Assembly: GCA_900551615.1 (NCBI GenBank)
Contig: URWN01000003.1
Span: forward strand, 2,812-66,811
Origin: an uncultured Clostridium sp.
Lineage (GTDB): Bacteria; Bacillota; Clostridia; TANB77; CAG-508
Length of the DNA stretch: 64,000 nt
Direction: 5' to 3'
Numbering within the stretch: the first letter of the stretch is position 1; the number at the start of each line of letters is the position of its first letter. The notes under the pieces were generated by a model. It was not told the DNA's origin. It saw only the letters and a list, made by a program, of their open reading frames with translations, and searched no databases. Positions 2,296 to 61,873 of this stretch are shown here, piece after piece. The position numbers were made by a program, and so were the translations under genes.

Positions 2296-2324
2296 TGTCC
2301 AAAAAGAACCGTCCCTATTGGACA
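2296..2324 (+). repeat. REP-like palindromic repeat, subfamily A (1 mismatch)
   Basis: TGTCCAAAAAGAACCGTCCCTATTGGACA, lying between the serS stop and the engB start on the - strand operon. Confidence 0.85.
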
Positions 2325-3611
2325 TTATTTTTTAGGAAGAATTTTTTCAGTTCCACCCATATAAGGTCTTAAAACCTCTGGAACAGTAACACTTCCATCT
2401 TCATTGTAATTGTTCTCTAATACAGCGATTAGTCCTCTTGGTGTTGCAACGACTGTATTGTTTAATGTATGTAAGAAGTAATTTCCTTTTTCACTTTTTA
2501 CACGAATTCCTAAACGTCTAGCTTGAGCATCTCCTAAGTTAGAACAACTACAAACTTCAAAGTATTTCTTTTGTCTTGGGCTCCATGCTTCTATATCACA
2601 AGATTTTACTTTTAAATCTGCTAAGTCACCAGAGCAGCAGTCAAGTTGTCTTACAGGGACATTAAAGCTTCTGAATAAGTCAACACTTAATTTCCACATT
2701 TTATTGTACCAAGTCATAGAATCTTCAGGTTCGCATAAAACTATCATTTCTTGTTTTTCAAATTGATGAACACGGTATAGACCTCTTTCTTCCAAACCAT
2801 GTGAACCAATTTCTTTTCTAAAACATGGAGAGTAAGATGTCATGCTAATTGGAAGTTCTTCTTTTTTTATTAATTGGTCTTTAAATCTACCAATCATAGA
2901 ATGTTCAGAAGTTCCGATTAAATATAAATCTTCACCTTCAATTTTGTACATCATATCATACATTTCTTCAAAACTCATAACACCAGTTACAACATCACTA
3001 CGAATCATAAATGGTGGTATAGCATATGTAAAGCCATTATTGATCATGTAGTCTCTAGCGTATGCAAGCATTGCTTCATGAAGTCTTGCAACATCACCAA
3101 TTAAATAATAGAAACCTACACCACTTGTACGTCCAGCAGATTCTTTATCCATTCCGTTAAATCTTGCAATAATATCTGCATGATATGGAATTTCGTAATC
3201 TGGAACAACTGGTTCACCAAATCTTTGAACTTCTACATTTTCACTGTCATCTTTACCGATTGGAACAGAAGGGTCCATGATATTTGGTATTTTCATCATT
3301 CTTGATTTTATTTCTTCTGCATATTTTGCTTCTAATTTTTCGTTTTCTTCAAGTTTTGCATTTATTTCTTGAACTTTTACTTTTATGCTTTCAGCTTCTT
3401 CTTTTTTGCCTTGTTTCATAAGTCCACCAATTTCGGCACTTAAAGATTTTCTTTCTGCTCTTAAGTTATCTCCATTTAATTTTGCTTCTCTGTTTTTTAC
3501 ATCTAAATCGATGACTTCATCAACTAATACTAATTTTTCGTCTTGAAATTTGTTCTTGATGTTTTGTTTAACAACATCTGGATTTTCTCTTAAAAATTTG
3601 ATATCTATCAT
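2325..3611 (-). CDS. serS: Serine--tRNA ligase
   Basis: 428 aa. N-terminal coiled-coil arm (MIDIKFLRENP...) and class II core motifs (e.g. GLYRVHQFEK..., TLNNTVVATPR). Confidence 0.92.
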   Translation of the reverse strand: MIDIKFLRENPDVVKQNIKNKFQDEKLVLVDEVIDLDVKNREAKLNGDNLRAERKSLSAEIGGLMKQGKKEEAESIKVKVQEINAKLEENEKLEAKYAEEIKSRMMKIPNIMDPSVPIGKDDSENVEVQRFGEPVVPDYEIPYHADIIARFNGMDKESAGRTSGVGFYYLIGDVARLHEAMLAYARDYMINNGFTYAIPPFMIRSDVVTGVMSFEEMYDMMYKIEGEDLYLIGTSEHSMIGRFKDQLIKKEELPISMTSYSPCFRKEIGSHGLEERGLYRVHQFEKQEMIVLCEPEDSMTWYNKMWKLSVDLFRSFNVPVRQLDCCSGDLADLKVKSCDIEAWSPRQKKYFEVCSCSNLGDAQARRLGIRVKSEKGNYFLHTLNNTVVATPRGLIAVLENNYNEDGSVTVPEVLRPYMGGTEKILPKK

Positions 3612-6416: not shown

Positions 6417-6437
6417 TTAGTTATTAATTTAAAAAAA

Positions 6438-6468
6438 GTTGTCAAAAGGGACGGGAAATTTTGACAAC
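6438..6468 (-). repeat. REP-like palindromic repeat, subfamily B
   Basis: GTTGTCAAAAGGGACGGGAAATTTTGACAAC in the grpE-dnaK spacer. Confidence 0.85.
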
Positions 6469-6488
6469 TAAAAATATAAAAATAAAAA

Positions 6489-6518
6489 GTTGTCAAAAAC
6501 CCCCGTCCCTTTTGACAA
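6489..6518 (+). repeat. REP-like palindromic repeat, subfamily B, inverted partner of 6438..6468
   Basis: GTTGTCAAAAACCCCCGTCCCTTTTGACAA, 20 bp from its partner. Confidence 0.85.
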
Positions 6519-10757: not shown

Positions 10758-10786
10758 TGACCAAAAAGAACCGTCCCTTTTGGACA
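10758..10786 (+). repeat. REP-like palindromic repeat, subfamily A (1 mismatch)
   Basis: TGACCAAAAAGAACCGTCCCTTTTGGACA, ending 11 nt before the ATG at 10798. Confidence 0.85.
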
Positions 10787-11277: not shown

Positions 11278-11284
11278 AAGGTTT

Positions 11285-11340
11285 AAGGAGTGTCCCCAAA
11301 TCCCTATTAGGAGGGATTTTAAGGAACGTCCCTAAATCCC
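11285..11340 (+). repeat. Composite repeat, subfamily C
   Basis: AAGGAGTGTCCCCAAATCCCT-ATTAGG-AGGGATTTTAAGGAACGTCCCTAAATCCC, very similar to 48896..48951. Ends 18 nt before the ruvB ATG. Confidence 0.8.
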
Positions 11341-11358
11341 TCGAGGAAAGGATAAAAC

Positions 11359-19383: not shown

Positions 19384-19938
19384 ATGAAATTATTAATGCA
19401 TACTTGTTGTGCACCATGCAGTGTATATTGTATAGATACTTTAAAAAAAGAAGGAATAGAACCAACAATATATTGGTATAATCCCAATATTCATCCATAT
19501 ATGGAATATAAAGCCAGAAGAGATACATTAAAAGAATATGCAAAGAGTTTAAATTTAGATGCAATATTTGATGAGGATTATGGACTAGATGAATTTTGCA
19601 AAAATGTAATTGGTGATATTTCTAATAGATGCACAAATTATTGTTATCCGGTAAGATTAAGAAAAACTTTTGAATATGCAAAAGAAAACGGATATGATGC
19701 AGTAACTACAACTCTTTTATATAGTATTTATCAAAATCATGATTTTATAAAAGAATATATGGAAAAACTAAGTGAAGAATATAATGTTAAATTTTTGTAT
19801 AGGGATTTTAGAGTTGGCTTTAGAGAAGGACAAGCAAAAGCAAGAGAAATAGGACTATATATGCAAAAATATTGTGGGTGTATTTTTTCTGAAGAAGAAA
19901 GATATGCAAAAAAAATAAAAAAAGATAGTTGTCAATAG
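19384..19938 (+). CDS. queH: Epoxyqueuosine reductase QueH (DUF208)
   Basis: MKLLMHTCCAPCS...YNPNIHP and C-terminal YCGC motif. Confidence 0.8.
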   Translation: MKLLMHTCCAPCSVYCIDTLKKEGIEPTIYWYNPNIHPYMEYKARRDTLKEYAKSLNLDAIFDEDYGLDEFCKNVIGDISNRCTNYCYPVRLRKTFEYAKENGYDAVTTTLLYSIYQNHDFIKEYMEKLSEEYNVKFLYRDFRVGFREGQAKAREIGLYMQKYCGCIFSEEERYAKKIKKDSCQ

Positions 19939-19958
19939 GGACGCCCCCTTTTGACAAC
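19928..19958 (-). repeat. REP-like palindromic repeat, subfamily B
   Basis: GTTGTCAATAGGGACGCCCCCTTTTGACAAC. It contains the queH stop codon. Confidence 0.85.
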
Positions 19959-26958: not shown

Positions 26959-26987
26959 TGTCCAAAAGGGACGGTTCTTTTTGGACA
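26959..26987 (-). repeat. REP-like palindromic repeat, subfamily A (perfect)
   Basis: TGTCCAAAAGGGACGGTTCTTTTTGGACA, 5 nt after the polA stop, followed by two CTTTTGGATA arm-like repeats (26988..27007). Confidence 0.9.
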
Positions 26988-34990: not shown

Positions 34991-35019
34991 TGTCCAAAAA
35001 GAACCGTCCCTTTTGGACA
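34991..35019 (+). repeat. REP-like palindromic repeat, subfamily A (perfect)
   Basis: TGTCCAAAAAGAACCGTCCCTTTTGGACA between dxs and the ylmH-like gene. Confidence 0.9.
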
Positions 35020-39543: not shown

Positions 39544-39572
39544 GTGTCCTTTTGGGACGGTTCTTTTTGGAC
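39544..39572 (-). repeat. REP-like palindromic repeat, subfamily A variant
   Basis: TGTCCTTTTGGGACGGTTCTTTTTGGACA. The left arm has TTTT in place of AAAA, which breaks the long stem. Confidence 0.8.
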
Positions 39573-39648
39573 ATCGTCTTTTAAAAGGACATTTTTAAAT
39601 ATGGATTTATAGTTGTTTTAAAAGAACACAAATGGAAGGAAAAATAAA

Positions 39649-40995: not shown

Positions 40996-41024
40996 ATGTA
41001 ACAAAAATGTAATATTTATGTAAT
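40996..41024 (+). repeat. Three 11-bp-phased ATGTAAC/ATGTAAT units
   Basis: ATGTAAC (40996), ATGTAAT (41007), ATGTAAT (41018), upstream of a TTGATA...TATAAA promoter-like pair. Confidence 0.55.
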
Positions 41025-41121
41025 AAAAACTTAATACAAAAAAAGTTTAAAACCCTTGATAAATATTTTTAAATGTAGTATAAAATATGTAGAGATAATT
41101 AATACAAAGGAGGAACTACAG

Positions 41122-41433
41122 ATGGCAGAAATAAATCAAGAAAACGGTGTATTTGGCGGAGTTTCATTTGGAAATGAAGTAAATGAAAATGCTGTTGTTG
41201 AAAATGCAGGAACAATTAGAAATGAAGCATTACCAGCAAAAGTAGGATTTTGGCAAAAATTCAAATCTTTCTGGTTACAAGATATTGATTGGAATAAAGA
41301 AATAAAAGTTGAATTAACACCAGGTCAACAAAAAGTTGAAGATGAAATAAATGAATTTTTACATCAAGAAATCACTTGGGAAAAAGTACATGATTTCTTA
41401 TTCCAAGATATTTCTTTTGGAAAGAAAAAATAA
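41122..41433 (+). CDS. Hypothetical small protein
   Basis: AAGGAGG precedes ATG 41122. 103 aa, Trp-rich C-terminal half. No family recognised. Confidence 0.5.
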   Translation: MAEINQENGVFGGVSFGNEVNENAVVENAGTIRNEALPAKVGFWQKFKSFWLQDIDWNKEIKVELTPGQQKVEDEINEFLHQEITWEKVHDFLFQDISFGKKK

Positions 41434-41446
41434 TTTAGGCTAATTG

Positions 41447-41475
41447 TGTCCAAAAGGGACGGTTCTTTTTGGACA
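41447..41475 (-). repeat. REP-like palindromic repeat, subfamily A (perfect)
   Basis: TGTCCAAAAGGGACGGTTCTTTTTGGACA. Confidence 0.9.
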
Positions 41476-41524
41476 TTTTATTATTTATAAGTAATATAAA
41501 TAATGTGAATTTTTTGTAAAAATT

Positions 41525-41569
41525 AAAAAAAGTATAGCACATCAATAAAAAATGTGTTATACTTTTTTT
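41525..41569 (+). terminator. Rho-independent terminator
   Basis: AAAAAAGTATAGCACAT ... ATGTGTTATACTTTTTT long stem with a T-run. Confidence 0.7.
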
Positions 41570-41633
41570 GTTTAATTGCTATTTTTGGGGGAAAATAGAA
41601 AATATTTAAAATAAAAATTAAAGGAGTGATTTT

Positions 41634-42467
41634 TTGCCTAGAATAGCGAGAATGTATAGTGAGTTAAAGGTTTATCATATAATAATACGAGGAATTGATA
41701 AACAAGACATATTTTTAGATACATATGATAAAGATAAATTTTTAAAGATAATACGTGATACAAAAGAAAAATATAATTATGAAGTTTATGCATATTGTTT
41801 AATGGATAATCATGTTCATTTGATAATCTATGATAAGGATGAAAAGATTTCAAAAATAATGCAAAGTATAGAAATAAGATATGTATCATATTTTAATCTT
41901 AAATATGATAGAGTGGGACATTTATTTCAAGATAGATTTCATAGTAAAAGAATAGGAGATAGAGAATACTTAAAGTTGGCTTGTAGATATATTCATCAAA
42001 ATCCGGCAAAAGCAGGCATAGCAAAGACAGAAGAATATAAGTGGAGTAGTTATAAAGAATATATTAAAACTCCTGAAATAATAAATAATAAACTTCTATT
42101 ATTAGTTTTTTCTAAAGATGAAAATGTTGCAAAACAAGAATTTATAAGGTTTCATAATGTAAATGCTAATGAAGATAAGAAAACAGAAATTACAAACATA
42201 TTGGAATATGAATTAAATGTAAAATTTACAGATGATGAAATTAGAAAATATATTTGTGATTTACTAGAAATAAAAAATGTTTATGATATTTCCAAATATA
42301 ATGCTAAAATAAGAAAAGAGCAGTTATTAAAAATAAAATGTTTGAAGAAAGTTTCTATAAGTCAATTAGCAAGGGTACTAGGAATTAATAGAAAAATAAT
42401 AGAAAGAACGTTAAAAAATGTCCAAAAAGAACCGTCCCTTTTGGACATGGACACAAAAAGGAGGTAG
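41634..42467 (+). CDS. IS200-like HUH/Y1 transposase homolog of the REP-associated tyrosine transposase (RAYT) type, with a C-terminal HTH-like region
   Basis: TTG start 7 nt after AGGAG. YHIIIRG, AYCLMDNHVHLII (HUH), GHLFQDRFHS, ACRYIHQNPAKAGI (catalytic Tyr helix). The last approximately 12 codons are read from a REP copy. Confidence 0.8.
   Translation: MPRIARMYSELKVYHIIIRGIDKQDIFLDTYDKDKFLKIIRDTKEKYNYEVYAYCLMDNHVHLIIYDKDEKISKIMQSIEIRYVSYFNLKYDRVGHLFQDRFHSKRIGDREYLKLACRYIHQNPAKAGIAKTEEYKWSSYKEYIKTPEIINNKLLLLVFSKDENVAKQEFIRFHNVNANEDKKTEITNILEYELNVKFTDDEIRKYICDLLEIKNVYDISKYNAKIRKEQLLKIKCLKKVSISQLARVLGINRKIIERTLKNVQKEPSLLDMDTKRR
42419..42447 (+). repeat. REP-like palindromic repeat, subfamily A (perfect)
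   Basis: TGTCCAAAAAGAACCGTCCCTTTTGGACA, inside the 3' end of the RAYT-like ORF and 24 nt before the radA GTG. Confidence 0.9.
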
Positions 42468-42470
42468 AAC

Positions 42471-43836
42471 GTGGCAAAGAATAAGACAGTTTTTGTATGT
42501 AATGAATGTGGATATGAATCAGGAAAATGGCTAGGAAAATGCCCTGCGTGTGGTAGTTGGAATACTTTTTTTGAACAAAAAATAGTAGAAAGTAAAAATA
42601 GTTCATTAAAAGCTGAAAAAAATACAAATAATATACCACAAAGACTTGATTCATATGAAGCTAAAGAGACAATAAGGACATCAACAGGTTTTGATGAATT
42701 AGATAGAGTTTTGGGTGGTGGACTTGTAAAGGGTTCATTAATTTTACTAGGAGGAGAGCCTGGAATTGGTAAATCTACTTTAATATTACAGTTATGTGAT
42801 AAAGTAAAAGGAGAAGGACAAGTATTATATGTTTCAGGAGAAGAGTCAGCAGAACAAATAAAATTAAGAGCTGATAGATTGCGGAATTCATAATGAGGAT
42901 ATATTATTTTTAGGTGAGACTGATATTGATATTGTAAACCAAAATATAATAAATTTAAATCCAAAATTAGTAATAATAGATTCAATTCAAACAATGTATT
43001 CAGAAGAAATTTCGGCAGCAGCTGGAAGCGTAAGCCAAGTAAGAGAAATAACATCACAGATAATGAGAGTGTGCAAATCTAGAAATATAACAACAATAAT
43101 TATAGGACATGTAACAAAAGATGGAAACATAGCAGGACCAAGAGTTTTGGAACATATGGTAGATACAGTTTTATATTTAGAAGGAGAAAGATATTTTTCT
43201 TATAGAATATTAAGAGGAGTAAAAAATAGATTTGGTTCTACAAATGAAATAGGTATGTTTGAAATGAAAGGAGAGGGAATGTGCGAAATAACTAATCCTT
43301 CAGATGTATTAATTTCAGAAAGAGAAGATAATCCACCAGGCTCATGTATTGTATCTTGTATGGAAGGTACTAGGTCAATGCTAGTAGAATTGCAAGCATT
43401 AACAACGCAAAGTGTATTTGGATTTCCTAAAAGGACTGCAAATGGTATAGATTATAATAGATTAGCGTTATTGATTGCAGTTTTGGAAAAAAGAGCTGGT
43501 ATGAATTTAGGAAGTCAAGATGTTTATTTAAATGTTGTAGGTGGTTTGAAAATAAATGAGCCTTCTATAGATTTAGGAATTATAATGGTAACCGCATCAA
43601 GCTATAAAAATATTCCAATTGAAAAAAACGTTGCTATAATGGGAGAAGTTGGTCTTACAGGTGAAGTTAGAAGAATTAATATGATAGAAAAAAGATTAAA
43701 AGAAGCGGAAAAATTAGGATTTAAAAAATGCATAATTCCAGAAAGTAATAAAAAAGGCTTGAAAGAAAATTTTAAATTAGATATAATAGGTGTCAAAGAT
43801 GTAAATGAGGCAATGAAAAAATTGGGACTAAAGTAA
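42471..43836 (+). pseudogene. radA: DNA repair protein RadA/Sms, frame broken by an apparent 1-nt insertion near 42881
   Basis: ORF1 has the zinc ribbon CNECGYESGKWLGKCPACGSW and Walker A GGEPGIGKST, and ends ...RADRLRNS*. The +1 frame is open from 42868 and reads GIHNEDILFLGETDIDIV...LVIIDSIQTM into ORF2, which carries KNRFG and the Lon-like C-terminal domain. Confidence 0.7.
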
Positions 43837-43856
43837 TTAAGGACAAAATACCAAAA

Positions 43857-43892
43857 TGTTAAAACTGTTAAAAGTATTAAAAGTATCAAAAG
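43857..43892 (+). repeat. Four 9-bp arm-like tandem units leading into the REP copy
   Basis: TGTTAAAAC TGTTAAAAG TATTAAAAG TATCAAAAG, then TGTCCAAAAAG.... Confidence 0.6.
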
Positions 43893-43921
43893 TGTCCAAA
43901 AAGAACCGTCCCTTTTGGACA
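43893..43921 (+). repeat. REP-like palindromic repeat, subfamily A (perfect)
   Basis: TGTCCAAAAAGAACCGTCCCTTTTGGACA in the radA-disA spacer. Confidence 0.9.
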
Positions 43922-43944
43922 TGCCCCGAAGGGAGGAATAGATT

Positions 43945-45003
43945 TTGACAGCAGATTTGCTTAAATTAATAGCACCTGGAACTCCAATAAGAGATGGGCT
44001 TGAAAATATACTAAGAGCAAAGACAGGGGCTTTATTACTTATAACAGATAATAATGATGTAATAAAGGAAATTGTTGATGGCGGATTTTATATAAATGAA
44101 GAATATACATCTTCAAAATTATATGAATTAGCTAAAATGGATGGAGCAATTGTTTTAAGTGGTGATTTAAAAAGAATTTTATTTGCAAATGCACAACTTA
44201 TACCTTCAAGGGAGATTGAAACAAGAGAAACTGGAACTAGACATAGAACAGCTGAAAGAACTGCAAAACAAACTGGTGAATTGGTAATAAGTATATCTCA
44301 AAGAAGAAATATAATAACAATTTTTAAAGGAGATTTTAGATATATATTAGAGGACACAAATGCTGTTTTAAACAAGGCAAACCAAGGTATTCAAACACTT
44401 GAAAGATATAAAAAAGTATTTGATAATAAACTTGCAATATTAAACGAATATGAATTTAATGATATAGTTACATTAAAAAATGTAATTGATGTAATACAAA
44501 GAGCAGAAATGGTAAGAAGAATTTCTTATGAAATCAAAAATCAAATATATGAACTTGGTGAGGATGGAAGACTTGTAAATATGCAATTACAAGAATTAAT
44601 GGGAGGCTTAGAAAAAGAGGAAGCCTTAATTATAAAAGATTATATAGTTGTAAAGAAATCAACTAAGAATAAAAAAACACCCGAAAAAGTAATAGAAGAA
44701 TTATCAAAAATGCAATATGAGGAGATGACAAGAGAAACTACAATAGCTAAATTGTTAGGATATGATACATTTGATAATTATGATGAAGTTGGTGTATACA
44801 CAAGAGGTTATAGAATTATAAATAAAATACCAAGAATGCCATCAAATATTGTAGAAAATTTAGTAATGTCATTTAAATCATTTCAACATATTTTGGCAGC
44901 TGATATAGAAAGTTTAGATGAAGTTGATGGAATTGGTGAAGTTAGAGCAAGAACAATTAGACAATCTTTAAGAAGGATGCAAGAGCAATTTATATTTGAG
45001 TAA
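43945..45003 (+). CDS. disA: DNA integrity scanning protein DisA (diadenylate cyclase)
   Basis: TTG start after GGGAGG. DAC domain DGAIVL, TGTRHRTAER. C-terminal HhH (VDGIGEVRAR). Conserved radA-disA synteny. Confidence 0.93.
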   Translation: MTADLLKLIAPGTPIRDGLENILRAKTGALLLITDNNDVIKEIVDGGFYINEEYTSSKLYELAKMDGAIVLSGDLKRILFANAQLIPSREIETRETGTRHRTAERTAKQTGELVISISQRRNIITIFKGDFRYILEDTNAVLNKANQGIQTLERYKKVFDNKLAILNEYEFNDIVTLKNVIDVIQRAEMVRRISYEIKNQIYELGEDGRLVNMQLQELMGGLEKEEALIIKDYIVVKKSTKNKKTPEKVIEELSKMQYEEMTRETTIAKLLGYDTFDNYDEVGVYTRGYRIINKIPRMPSNIVENLVMSFKSFQHILAADIESLDEVDGIGEVRARTIRQSLRRMQEQFIFE

Positions 45004-45836: not shown

Positions 45837-45872
45837 TGTCAATAGGGACGCCCCTTTTTGACATTTTTGACA
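45837..45872 (-). repeat. REP-like palindromic repeat, subfamily B, with a duplicated right arm
   Basis: TGTCAATAGGGACGCCCCTTTTTGACA followed by a second TTTTTGACA. Confidence 0.8.
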
Positions 45873-45964
45873 GAAAATTAGCTACAGTTCAGTAAAAATT
45901 AATGTCAAGTAAAAAAATTAGAAAAACACTTGCCAAATAAAAAGGCAAGTGTTAAAATAATAAT

Positions 45965-46056: not shown

Positions 46057-47676
<1,620 letters not shown>

Positions 47677-48849: not shown

Positions 48850-48895
48850 AAAATAAATTTTGGGATTGAACTAAAATCTTGAAAAAAGTAAATTA

Positions 48896-50612
<1,717 letters not shown>

Positions 50613-50932: not shown

Positions 50933-51592
50933 ATGATAACTTTAAAAGACATAAAAGAAAACAAAGAGCTAGATGCTCTTATAAGAGGAGCACAAAAACA
51001 ATTAAACGCAATAGGGTATACAGAACATGGGCACAGACACATATCAATAGTATCAAAAAGAGCCGGAGATATATTAGAAAAATTAGGATATCCAGAAAGA
51101 ACGGTGGAATTAACAAGAATAGCAGGATATATGCATGATATAGGAAATTGTGTAAACAGAGTAGACCATGCACATACTGGAGCAATACTTGCATACAACA
51201 TTTTAAAAGAAATGGGAATGCCAATAGAAGAAATAACAGAAATAATGATGGCAATAGGAAATCATGATGAAAACACAGGGACAGCAGTAAGTGATATATC
51301 AGCAGCATTAATATTAGCAGACAAATCAGATGTACATAGAGACAGAGTTGTAAATAAAAATTTATCAACATTTGATATACACGATAGAGTAAATTATGCA
51401 GTAACAGATGCAGATTTAATAATGAATGCAGAAGAAAGAAAAATAACATTAAATCTAACAATAGACACAAAAATCAGTCCAGTATTAGATTATTTCGAAA
51501 TATTTATGCAAAGAACAATGATGTGTAAATATGCTGCAAAATATTTAAAAATATGGTTTGAATTAATAATAAATGACACAAAATTATTATAA
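50933..51592 (+). CDS. HD-domain phosphohydrolase
   Basis: HGHRH...YMHDIGN...GNHDE metal-binding pattern. Confidence 0.7.
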   Translation: MITLKDIKENKELDALIRGAQKQLNAIGYTEHGHRHISIVSKRAGDILEKLGYPERTVELTRIAGYMHDIGNCVNRVDHAHTGAILAYNILKEMGMPIEEITEIMMAIGNHDENTGTAVSDISAALILADKSDVHRDRVVNKNLSTFDIHDRVNYAVTDADLIMNAEERKITLNLTIDTKISPVLDYFEIFMQRTMMCKYAAKYLKIWFELIINDTKLL

Positions 51593-51596
51593 TAAA

Positions 51597-51738
51597 TTTT
51601 GGATGAAGAAGAGCAAATTAAAATAAGATTTGGCAGACAAAATTTTTGTTAAAAAATTTTGGATGACGATGAGCAAATTAAAATAAGATTTGGCAGACAA
51701 AATTTTTGTTAAAAAAATTTTGGATGACGATGAGCAAA
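51597..51738 (+). repeat. Tandem direct repeat, 60/61-bp unit, about 2.35 copies
   Basis: Units 51597-51656 and 51657-51717 differ at 2 positions plus 1 extra A. A third partial unit (51718-51738) continues into unique sequence before secD. Confidence 0.9.
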
Positions 51739-61369: not shown

Positions 61370-61873
61370 ATGGAGATATTTGAACTACTAGAAACTTTGG
61401 AGGATATAATTGAAAAAAGTAGAAATGTACCATTTTCAAGTAAAGGAATTGTAGATAAAGAAGAAATGCTAGACTTAATAAAGGAAATAAGACTAAAACT
61501 TCCAGATGAGCTAAAACAAGCTAAATGGGTAAAAGAAGAAAGACAACGTATATTAGTAGAAGCTCAAAAAGAAGCAGATGGAATAGTAAAAGAAGCAGAG
61601 AATAGAATTATATCAATGATAGATGAACATGAAATTACAAGAAAAGCATATGAACAAAAGAAAGAAATAATTGAGAATGCTAATGAAAGATCAAGAGAAA
61701 TATCTAATGGAACTAAAGAATATGCAGATGAATTATTAGCACATACAGAAGATGTATTAACACAAACATTAGGTGGATTAGAGAAAAATATATCAGAAGC
61801 TCTAAAATTAATGGAAATGTCTATAGAAGACACATTAAAAACAGTTCAAAATAGTAGAAAAGAATTAAAATAA
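61370..61873 (+). CDS. Hypothetical coiled-coil protein
   Basis: 167 aa, charged and helical. No confident family. Confidence 0.45.
   Translation: MEIFELLETLEDIIEKSRNVPFSSKGIVDKEEMLDLIKEIRLKLPDELKQAKWVKEERQRILVEAQKEADGIVKEAENRIISMIDEHEITRKAYEQKKEIIENANERSREISNGTKEYADELLAHTEDVLTQTLGGLEKNISEALKLMEMSIEDTLKTVQNSRKELK

Follow-up and report, generated by a model that had tools for sequence, protein, structure and literature searches.

A Y1/HUH enzyme gene bracketed by inverted REP-like hairpins in an uncultured gut Clostridium

The window analyzed here, 64,000 nt of contig URWN01000003.1 from an uncultured Clostridium sp. (26.5% GC; approximately 89% coding and 11% non-coding), contains a gene for a Y1/HUH enzyme at 41634..42467 on the plus strand, which is bracketed by inverted copies of a dispersed hairpin repeat. 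The gene and the repeats are probably a domesticated single-stranded DNA (ssDNA) enzyme and its cognate hairpins, which resemble repetitive extragenic palindromes (REPs); taken broadly, the unit counts as a REPtron, and its more exact placement is the TIRtron/TIRYT type. This interpretation draws on the anatomy of the locus, the family-wide association between gene and hairpin, the covariation of the hairpin stems, the synteny of the gene, and the turnover of the hairpins between species and strains, all of which are observed directly. Systems of REPs and REP-associated tyrosine transposases (RAYTs) are the best example of long-lived, vertically inherited intragenomic replicators, and knowledge of them comes almost entirely from Proteobacteria. 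The structure of a single such enzyme with its REP, E. coli TnpA-REP, has been solved.

The enzyme, its gene and the bracketing repeats

The RAYT/TIRYT-like gene occurs once in the window and encodes 277 aa. It begins with a TTG codon 7 nt 3′ of AGGAG, and its codons for H60-V61-H62 and Tyr119 lie at 41811–41819 and 41988, respectively, exactly as an earlier note on this DNA had read them from the letters. The protein is composed of a core (residues ~13–140) carrying H60/H62, Tyr119, and WSS137–139, followed by a helical linker and a C-terminal helix-turn-helix (HTH; ~231–262). Its identification as a Y1 transposase with HUH and Tyr blocks is confirmed by the Pfam Y1_Tnp model (57.8 bits, cut-off 23) and by an alignment of 32 homologues with identities down to 33%, in which H15, R19, G20, N59, H62, Y119, H121, N123, P124, and W137-S138-S139 are invariant and H60 is nearly so. 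The profile search that the earlier note had proposed also separates the protein from the IS200 group; the NCBIfam model for REP-associated tyrosine transposases (REP_Tyr_transpos, NF047646) scores 73.9 bits, short of its equivalog cut-off of 80, and the IS200 model scores 20.1 bits against a cut-off of 55. A profile of the family has a single significant match in the PDB, E. coli TnpA-REP (4ER8, E=9.6e-6); this profile was needed, as a single-sequence phmmer search of the PDB with the window protein returned no match. The AlphaFold (AF2) model has a predicted local distance difference test score (pLDDT) of 85.5, and its best Foldseek match is likewise 4ER8, with a TM score of 0.75 on the target and a root-mean-square deviation of 2.6 Å over 149 columns. 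Transposases of IS608, ISDra2, and IS200 also match the fold (Foldseek E ~1e-5) and come behind 4ER8. The window protein is therefore nearer E. coli TnpA-REP than the IS200 transposases.

The C-terminal HTH, also proposed in the earlier note, is borne out by several observations. The Pfam matches in the window protein itself are weak, with HTH_23 and HTH_29 located at residues 231–265 (HTH_23 E=0.023, below threshold). Among the 32 homologues, 12 match HTH_23 (best 4.6e-7) and three match HTH_28, and the C-terminal domain of the AF2 model is helical. The family is large, comprising 829 clusters (50% identity) at E<1e-30 and 12,872 at E<1e-10.

The bracket consists of the 29-mer TGTCCAAAAGGGACGGTTCTTTTTGGACA, a perfect copy of which occupies 41447..41475 on the plus strand, and its exact reverse complement at 42419..42447. 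The left copy, with its G strand on the plus strand, lies 13 nt past the stop codon of the upstream open reading frame (ORF) and is followed by a T-run, which makes it terminator-like. The right copy is contained in the extended 3′ end of the Y1 gene, and 23 nt separate it from the radA start. Since the homologues, of ~255–265 aa, end in ...IIERA, the window gene has lost its native stop and gained 18 read-through residues beyond the ~259 native ones. These final 18 residues are encoded by the right-hand repeat and the spacer behind it; one copy of the repeat has thus replaced the gene's own stop. The earlier note was correct that this copy codes for the gene end but had assigned it the last ~12 codons; it supplies ~10 (residues ~262–271), and the spacer before radA adds six more. 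The native stop is also lost, with read-through into the right-hand repeat, in a related species whose Y1 protein is 73% identical (L019).

Between the left repeat and the Y1 start lies a further palindrome, AAAAAGTATAGCACAT-N9-ATGTGTTATACTTTTT, with 16-bp arms followed by a T-run (41533–41577). It is nearly base-for-base the same in L019 and in a second related species (L021), in the midst of intergenic DNA that diverges on its flanks. The palindrome includes an extended −10-like sequence, TGTTATACT, and could act as a terminator, attenuator, or operator for the Y1 gene.

Hairpins beside distant homologues and across the window

The association of gene and hairpin was examined at 80 loci from metagenomes that encode distant homologues (32–53% identity; contig GC 27–59%). 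In a motif-blind count, the commonest 8-mer of the gene flanks, GGGGACGG, occurred at 56 of the 80 loci and in none of the 80 gene bodies, and the overlapping flank 8-mers assemble to AAGGGGACGGTTCTC. The longest inverted repeat shared between upstream and downstream flanks, also sought motif-blind, holds GGGACG in 35 of 54 loci, and several of the others hold GGGGACAG. Under a strict definition of the element (exact GGGACG and at least 6/9 Watson–Crick stem pairs), its placement was counted over 69 loci. A plus-oriented element lies within 300 nt upstream of the gene in 44 of these 69 (median 75 nt, mode ~62), as against two with a minus-oriented element there. At or just past the stop codon, the minus orientation is found in 42 of 69 loci, 11 of them with the element overlapping the 3′ end of the gene, and the plus orientation in seven. 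The usual layout pairs a copy ~60–100 nt upstream with one in inverted orientation at the stop codon. Elements occur at 2.61/kb next to the gene and at 0.125/kb elsewhere in the same contigs, a 21-fold enrichment, and a covariance model built from the homologue hairpins finds 148 matches in these loci. The orientation and density results establish the inverted-hairpin bracket as a signature of the whole protein family rather than a local accident, and the hairpins as cognate to the gene.

These data also dispose of a coincidental adjacency, in which a common intergenic repeat would flank an unrelated transposase relic by chance. With 14 copies in ~60 intergenic spaces, we estimate that both neighboring spaces of a given gene would be occupied in a few percent of cases, so that the window on its own offers this explanation some room. 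The same bracket, tip motif, and orientations nevertheless recur in most of the 80 independent distant loci with the 21-fold enrichment beside the gene, and in L021 the sole canonical copy in 20.8 kb sits at the 3′ end of the gene. Chance adjacency is effectively refuted by the flank analysis and the density enrichment, and we regard its probability as negligible.

In the hairpins, GGGGACGG forms the tip, GGGGACGGTTCT, whereas the stems differ between loci and covary. Stems such as GTGTCAAG/CTTGACAC, GAGTCA../..TGACTC, GGAGACA/TGTCTCC, and GCGCGCA/TGCGCGC all carry the same tip. Among 87 distinct hairpins, compensatory double changes were found at 9 of 12 stem pairs and 90.5% of the cells are paired, the set having been pre-selected for pairing in a manner that inflates the percentage paired and leaves the compensatory-change count unaffected. 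The covariation score is 0.746, as compared with 0.19 for shuffles and 0.13–0.22 for slid registers. At unselected sites, 86 of 190 (45%) have at least 7/9 Watson–Crick pairs, versus 2.8% when a site is matched with the 3′ flank of another locus. The conserved motif, GGGACGGTTCT, stands at the apex, and the flanks at the foot of the hairpin are not conserved. The invariant tip, GGG-ACGGT-TCT, has a short loop closed by three pairs, which are, in order, G·T, G-C, and G·T in 80–86 of the 87 hairpins. The G strand can therefore close to a loop of 3–5 nt; on the C strand (AGAACCGTCCC), A·C mismatches would arise and prevent such closure. In silico, each strand folds as ssDNA (ΔG about −7.6 kcal/mol, z −3.7 to −6.2). 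The differing folds of the G and C strands could let the enzyme tell the two apart.

In the window, the 29-mer has seven matches with at most one mismatch, compared with none in 100 dinucleotide-preserving shuffles. The bracket, the three further perfect copies, and the variants described in the earlier note were all found again; in total, five copies are perfect, two have one mismatch, and seven are variants. The GGGACG core occurs 15 times (~2.3 expected), and 14 of these 15 occurrences lie inside hairpins of three stem types. Type A, with the stem TGTCCAAAA, includes the bracket. Its other perfect copies lie at 26959..26987 (+), 5 nt past a stop codon; at 34991..35019 (−), between dxs and a ylmH-like gene; and at 43893..43921 (−), between radA and disA. 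The two one-mismatch copies are found at 2296..2324 (−), directly past the stop of the minus-strand gene 2325..3611, and at 10758..10786 (−), just upstream of the ribosome-binding site and ATG at ~10798. A type A variant with the 5′ arm TGTCCTTTT follows the mreB stop by 7 nt (39545..39573, +). The 5′ flanks of the type A copies showed no sequence conservation, and the YTTTT on their 3′ side appears to belong to the repeat unit.

Type B hairpins have the stem TTGTCAAAA or TGTCAATA. Two of them, at 6437..6469 (+; stem TTGTCAAAA, GGGACGG tip) and 6490..6518 (−), are the left and right halves of a REPIN-like inverted doublet, 20 nt apart; inverted or tandem doublets also stand beside many homologue genes, for example at loci L047, L081, L085, L086, and L097. 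A third, with the tip GGGACGCCCCC, overlaps the stop of a gene (19928..19958, +), and the fourth lies past the PPIase gene (45837..45863, +). Type C, with the stem GAGGGATTT and the tip GGGACGTTCC, is present at 11311..11342 (−), within a 76-nt composite, and at 48924..48951 (−), between groES and groEL. Both type C composites (11282–11357 and 48854–48967) hold GGGACGTTCC together with GGGGACAC, which matches exactly the GGGGWSAS motif considered below, and both lie directly upstream of start codons with a GGAGG ribosome-binding site of their own.

Twelve of the 14 hairpins are wholly non-coding, and one more lies in the read-through tail of the Y1 gene. The remaining one falls only within the maximal ORF, 5′ of where the next gene probably begins, so that all 14 copies are effectively extragenic. 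The covariance model recovers the seven canonical copies at 40–45 bits as well as variant copies. Its weak matches at 61870, 48301, 60590, and 29420 were set aside; the first of these, on inspection, is an ordinary terminator-like hairpin. Separate from the hairpins, three tandem ~60-nt direct repeats (AAAATTTTTGTTAAAAAATTTTGGATGACGATGAGCAAA...) occupy an intergenic stretch at 51579–51738, and a related sequence is found in the disA–PPIase spacer of L021.

The placement of the copies relates them to expression signals. Each of the seven forward copies carries a T-run and starts 0–20 nt past a stop codon, in one case with an 11-nt overlap of the stop. The seven reverse copies all end 11–23 nt upstream of the next start codon. 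A terminator scan of 41000–44100 found six candidates against 0.5 expected and called the forward copies terminator-like. Together with the T-run, the forward copies resemble intrinsic terminators, and the reverse copies lie just upstream of ribosome-binding sites. In the distant loci, a TTGnnn −35 sequence in or abutting the 3′ arm, with a −10 sequence at a spacing of 16–18 nt, accompanies 25 of 49 upstream copies and 11 of 199 others. This overlap suggests that in these relatives the promoter of the enzyme is embedded in its own upstream hairpin.

These signals raise the alternative that the hairpins are host regulatory elements, such as terminators, mRNA-stabilizing hairpins, or operators, that the HTH protein is a regulator with a perhaps idle Y1 domain, and that the repeats spread by other means. 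The result of the terminator scan, the positions next to stop and start codons, the promoter overlap in 51% of the distant loci, and the presence of a C-terminal HTH all agree with this explanation, and the G·T pairs of the tip would become G·U pairs in RNA. Half of the window copies, however, are antisense to local transcription, with the T-run on the wrong strand. Moreover, terminators need no invariant 11-nt tip, yet the tip is conserved over a GC range of 27–59%, and neither the near-identical copies at non-orthologous sites nor the turnover between species is explained. The invariance of the HUH histidines and the catalytic Tyr in the family argues for retained catalysis and against an idle domain. 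Purely regulatory hairpins are accordingly an unlikely explanation in our assessment.

Inheritance of the gene and turnover of the hairpins

The exact Y1 protein is listed in 187 assembly blocks, mostly human-gut metagenomes, of which 23 contigs were read. In all six distinct places shown by these contigs, the gene has the same context: mtaB, a 103-aa ORF, Y1, radA, disA, PPIase, and pyrG. The mtaB-Y1-radA-disA synteny is kept in L019 and L021, in which the Y1 protein is 73% and 63% identical, respectively, and the housekeeping neighbor proteins are 78–96% identical. The ORF between mtaB and Y1 is 103–125 aa long. No tnpB is present at the Y1 locus in the window, in the related species, or in the contexts shown. 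With a single syntenic context, a single copy in the window, and no tnpB, the Y1 gene shows the behavior of a domesticated gene passed on vertically rather than that of an insertion sequence. The earlier note had likewise described a gene that lacks tnpB and is not multi-copy, and the single copy in the window and the one context shared by six of six places agree with it.

An ordinary or decaying IS200/IS605-type element, with the hairpins as its ends and gene and ends moving as a unit, would share the Y1/HUH fold and the bracketing hairpins, and the hairpins of the IS608 and ISDra2 TnpA transposases are recognized as single strands, as is proposed here. TnpA-Y1 subclass 2.1.2 is also reported to be distributed patchily across taxa, suggesting horizontal transfer (Quentin 2018, PMC6006769). 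The typical features of such elements are not found here, namely a short protein of ~130–150 aa, multiple copies, direct subterminal hairpins, a frequent tnpB, and movement of the whole element. The IS200 model falls far below its cut-off, the single copy keeps its chromosomal position across species at 63–73% protein identity, and the ends are inverted identical copies, unlike the direct non-identical left-end and right-end hairpins of IS608-type elements. Furthermore, the hairpins stand alone at 12 other sites of the window. An IS200/IS605 element was thus rejected on the grounds of its model score, its single syntenic copy, and the missing tnpB, and is highly improbable.

Two neighboring genes deserve mention. 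radA (42471..43836) is broken by a +1 frameshift at ~42880–42886, directly 3′ of ...QIKLRADRL, where the sequence reads AGA TTG C GGA ATT and the 0 frame meets stops past a rare CGG. L019 (~11280) and L021 (~11262) come from separate assemblies, and both have the extra C at the same codon, next to codons that differ synonymously (TTA for TTG, GGC ATA for GGA ATT). This recurrence across species and assemblies, together with the synonymous changes, points to a conserved and possibly programmed frameshift rather than a sequencing error or a pseudogene. pyrG is one 535-aa ORF in the window (46069..47676) and is called in the two related species as a 31-aa piece and a ~485-aa piece (L019, 14329–15937; L021, 15389–17006).

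The hairpins differ between species at orthologous intergenic sites. The exact 29-mer is found in seven species-representative metagenome-assembled genomes, six labelled as uncultured Clostridium or Clostridia (one of them named Clostridium sp. 28_17) and one labelled Opitutales, with 13 copies in the richest. The syntenic ~20 kb holds seven, six, and one copies in the three species. Between radA and disA, the window has one copy where L019 and L021 have none, and the same holds between mreB and mtaB. The disA–PPIase site is empty in the window and in L021 and holds two copies in L019. Between dxs and ylmH, the window has one reverse copy, L019 has a forward copy and half-copies, and L021 has none. 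The copy at the 3′ end of the Y1 gene is kept in all three species. The stems change with the lineage (TGTCCAAAA.., TGTCCAAAC.., and TGTCCCATG.. in the three species), and the tip remains constant. In the related species, half elements such as TGTCCATTTGGGACAGATCT, with a GGGACAG tip and no 3′ arm, adjoin full hairpins and the Y1 gene (L019, 4270–4359 and 9811–9870; L021, 9832–9860). They may be decayed copies or a second class of motif.

The comparison of strains suggested in the earlier note was made over six conspecific contigs covering ±10 kb of the gene at 94–100% identity, and its outcome is divided: segments with type B and type C hairpins are polymorphic for presence, and the type A copies are fixed. 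A 69-nt segment containing a type B hairpin (45838–45906) is missing in two of the six strains. The 105-nt type C composite between groES and groEL (48854–48967) is missing in four of the six, and these four use another ribosome-binding site, GGGAG. Elsewhere in these contigs, a 118-nt segment at ~50734, comprising a tRNA-like sequence and a spacer, is tandemly duplicated in five of the six (L104–L109) and single in the window. Downstream of it, a serine-recombinase gene replaces the window sequence in some strains, and the presence of this strain-variable gene beside a tRNA suggests an integration hotspot.

Relation to known systems and significance

TIRtrons have been described as RAYT-like TIRYT genes flanked by terminal inverted repeats (TIRs), many of which share the sequence GGGGWSAS; some TIRs are self-complementary, and some form moderately abundant dispersed families (Di Nocera 2013, PMC3733652). 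TIRYT genes probably correspond to TnpA-Y1 subclass 2.1 (2.1.2), whose proteins end in a Bac_DnaA_C, HTH_23, or HTH_28 domain and carry a Ser motif. This subclass is the second largest and is present in ~15% of strains, and automatic and manual searches found no REP-like sequences near its genes (Quentin 2018, PMC6006769). The system described here resembles this class in its RAYT-like Y1 protein, which is longer than canonical RAYTs, in its C-terminal HTH of the HTH_23/HTH_28/DnaA_C-like kind, and in its Ser motif past the catalytic Tyr helix, where W137, S138, and S139 are invariant. It further shares the flanking terminal inverted repeats at roughly fixed distances, which sometimes extend over the 3′ end of the gene. 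Compared with GGGGWSAS, the flank motif of most loci, GGGGACGG, agrees at 7 of 8 positions and that of a minority, GGGGACAG, agrees exactly; the motif of the window is AGGGACGG. As judged from the published class descriptions, the nearest class is TIRtron/TIRYT, probably TnpA-Y1 subclass 2.1.

The system also departs from this class. Its host is an AT-rich gut Clostridium, whereas the two surveys (PMC3733652, PMC6006769) link no REP or TIR family and no subclass 2.1 to Firmicutes and mention Clostridia only for subclass 1.1. The hairpins are distinct, with covarying stems and an invariant 11-nt tip, in contrast to the lack of REP-like sequences reported for subclass 2.1, and their density of 14 copies in 64 kb is REP-like. 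The invariant-tip hairpin, the REP-like density in a Clostridium, and the vertical inheritance within a clade are what the present system adds to the TIRtron class. Group 1 RAYTs have been reported in Clostridia as well, where they are weakly associated with repeated 16-mers (Bertels 2017, PMC5581495). A literature search for RAYTs or REPtrons in Clostridium, Firmicutes, or Bacillota found no such system described; Firmicutes are not mentioned in Nunvar 2010 or in the preprint "Ancient Darwinian replicators". A full-text search for GGGACGGTTC, GAACCGTCCC, and their neighbors returned only unrelated primer and oligonucleotide matches. None of the papers found gives an account of the motif or of such a system in Firmicutes, in line with the earlier note's view that the arrangement is uncharacterized in AT-rich Clostridia.

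The gammaproteobacterial REPtron, which the earlier note took as its model, is represented by E. coli TnpA-REP (RayT/YafM, 4ER8) with its REPs and bacterial interspersed mosaic elements (REP/BIME), and by the RAYT-REPIN systems of Pseudomonas. The likeness holds in the broad sense: a single-copy, vertically inherited Y1 gene lies among inverted dispersed palindromes, REPIN-like inverted doublets occur, 4ER8 is the best match in both structure and sequence, and the bracket recurs in most of the 80 homologue loci. The nearest described class is TIRtron/TIRYT and not the GTAG REPtron. The enzyme here has an extra helical and HTH extension of ~120 aa, the hosts are Firmicutes instead of Proteobacteria, and the conserved motif is located at the hairpin tip rather than the foot. 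The earlier note had missed this position; the conserved CGTCCC/GGGACG core forms the hairpin tip and is no foot tag. CGTC-tagged REPs are likewise short extragenic palindromes with CGTC on the C strand and are reported to have no transposase of their own. They have an unpaired CGTC tag at the end of an 8–9 bp stem, a 4–5 nt loop, and a CCA tail (Di Nocera 2013, PMC3733652). The resemblance is confined to the tetranucleotide, and membership in this group was rejected, as CGTCCC is apical here, the CCA tail is missing, and a dedicated Y1 gene is present.

Several points weigh against a domesticated enzyme with cognate hairpins. The GT[AG]G that marks the foot of canonical REPs is missing from the hairpins, and the score with the REP-associated equivalog model stays below the cut-off. 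Near the gene, all six strain contigs have the same type A copies, and no very recent transposition of type A is seen. The strain indels of types B and C lack clean, element-sized boundaries; empty and filled sites with exact element boundaries were sought in the six strains, and none was found from which a target or cleavage position could be deduced. In the clade of the window, the left copy lies 158 nt from the start codon, so that the promoter-overlap argument holds for the relatives and not directly here. That the enzyme binds, cuts, and moves these hairpins, and that it regulates itself, is our inference.

On this basis, a domesticated enzyme with cognate hairpins may operate as follows. 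The Y1 core would bind the folded single-stranded hairpin, reading the sequence of the invariant tip and the shape of the stem. The enzyme would then cleave and rejoin ssDNA beside the hairpin, as E. coli TnpA-REP does on REPs, and such cleavage and rejoining would copy, move, or remove intergenic hairpins, with the replication fork as the probable site. Duplex DNA is the probable ligand of the C-terminal HTH, which would serve autoregulation or targeting. Since the 3′ arm of the upstream hairpin supplies the −35 box in many relatives, binding of the HTH at this position would autoregulate the enzyme.

A wider interpretation, which we put forward tentatively as having a little less than an even chance of being right, is that these hairpins supply the cognate REP family so far missing for subclass 2.1, the subclass that bears the HTH. 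The enzyme would read the invariant apical motif GGGGACGGTTCT, with its G·T pairs and its strands that fold differently, and the stems would be free to drift. The upstream copy would provide the enzyme's own −35 box, making the unit a self-regulated replicator. Such units would be widespread in anaerobic Firmicutes and would be actively remodeling terminators, 5′ leaders, and gene ends in gut Clostridia.

Earlier surveys of this large and uncharacterized Y1/HUH branch reported either TIRs alone or no hairpins. The present locus and the 80 related loci provide a tractable DNA partner for it, with an invariant 11-nt tip and a freely varying stem, and open to experiment the questions of which strand and nucleotides are read, what role the extra HTH plays, and whether the promoter is repressed through the hairpin. 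A sizeable share of the intergenic signals of this prevalent, uncultured, AT-rich human-gut Clostridium is built from one presumably mobile hairpin family; among these signals are terminator-like hairpins, sequences abutting ribosome-binding sites, and the C-terminus of one gene. The family therefore bears on how such genomes are annotated, assembled, and binned.

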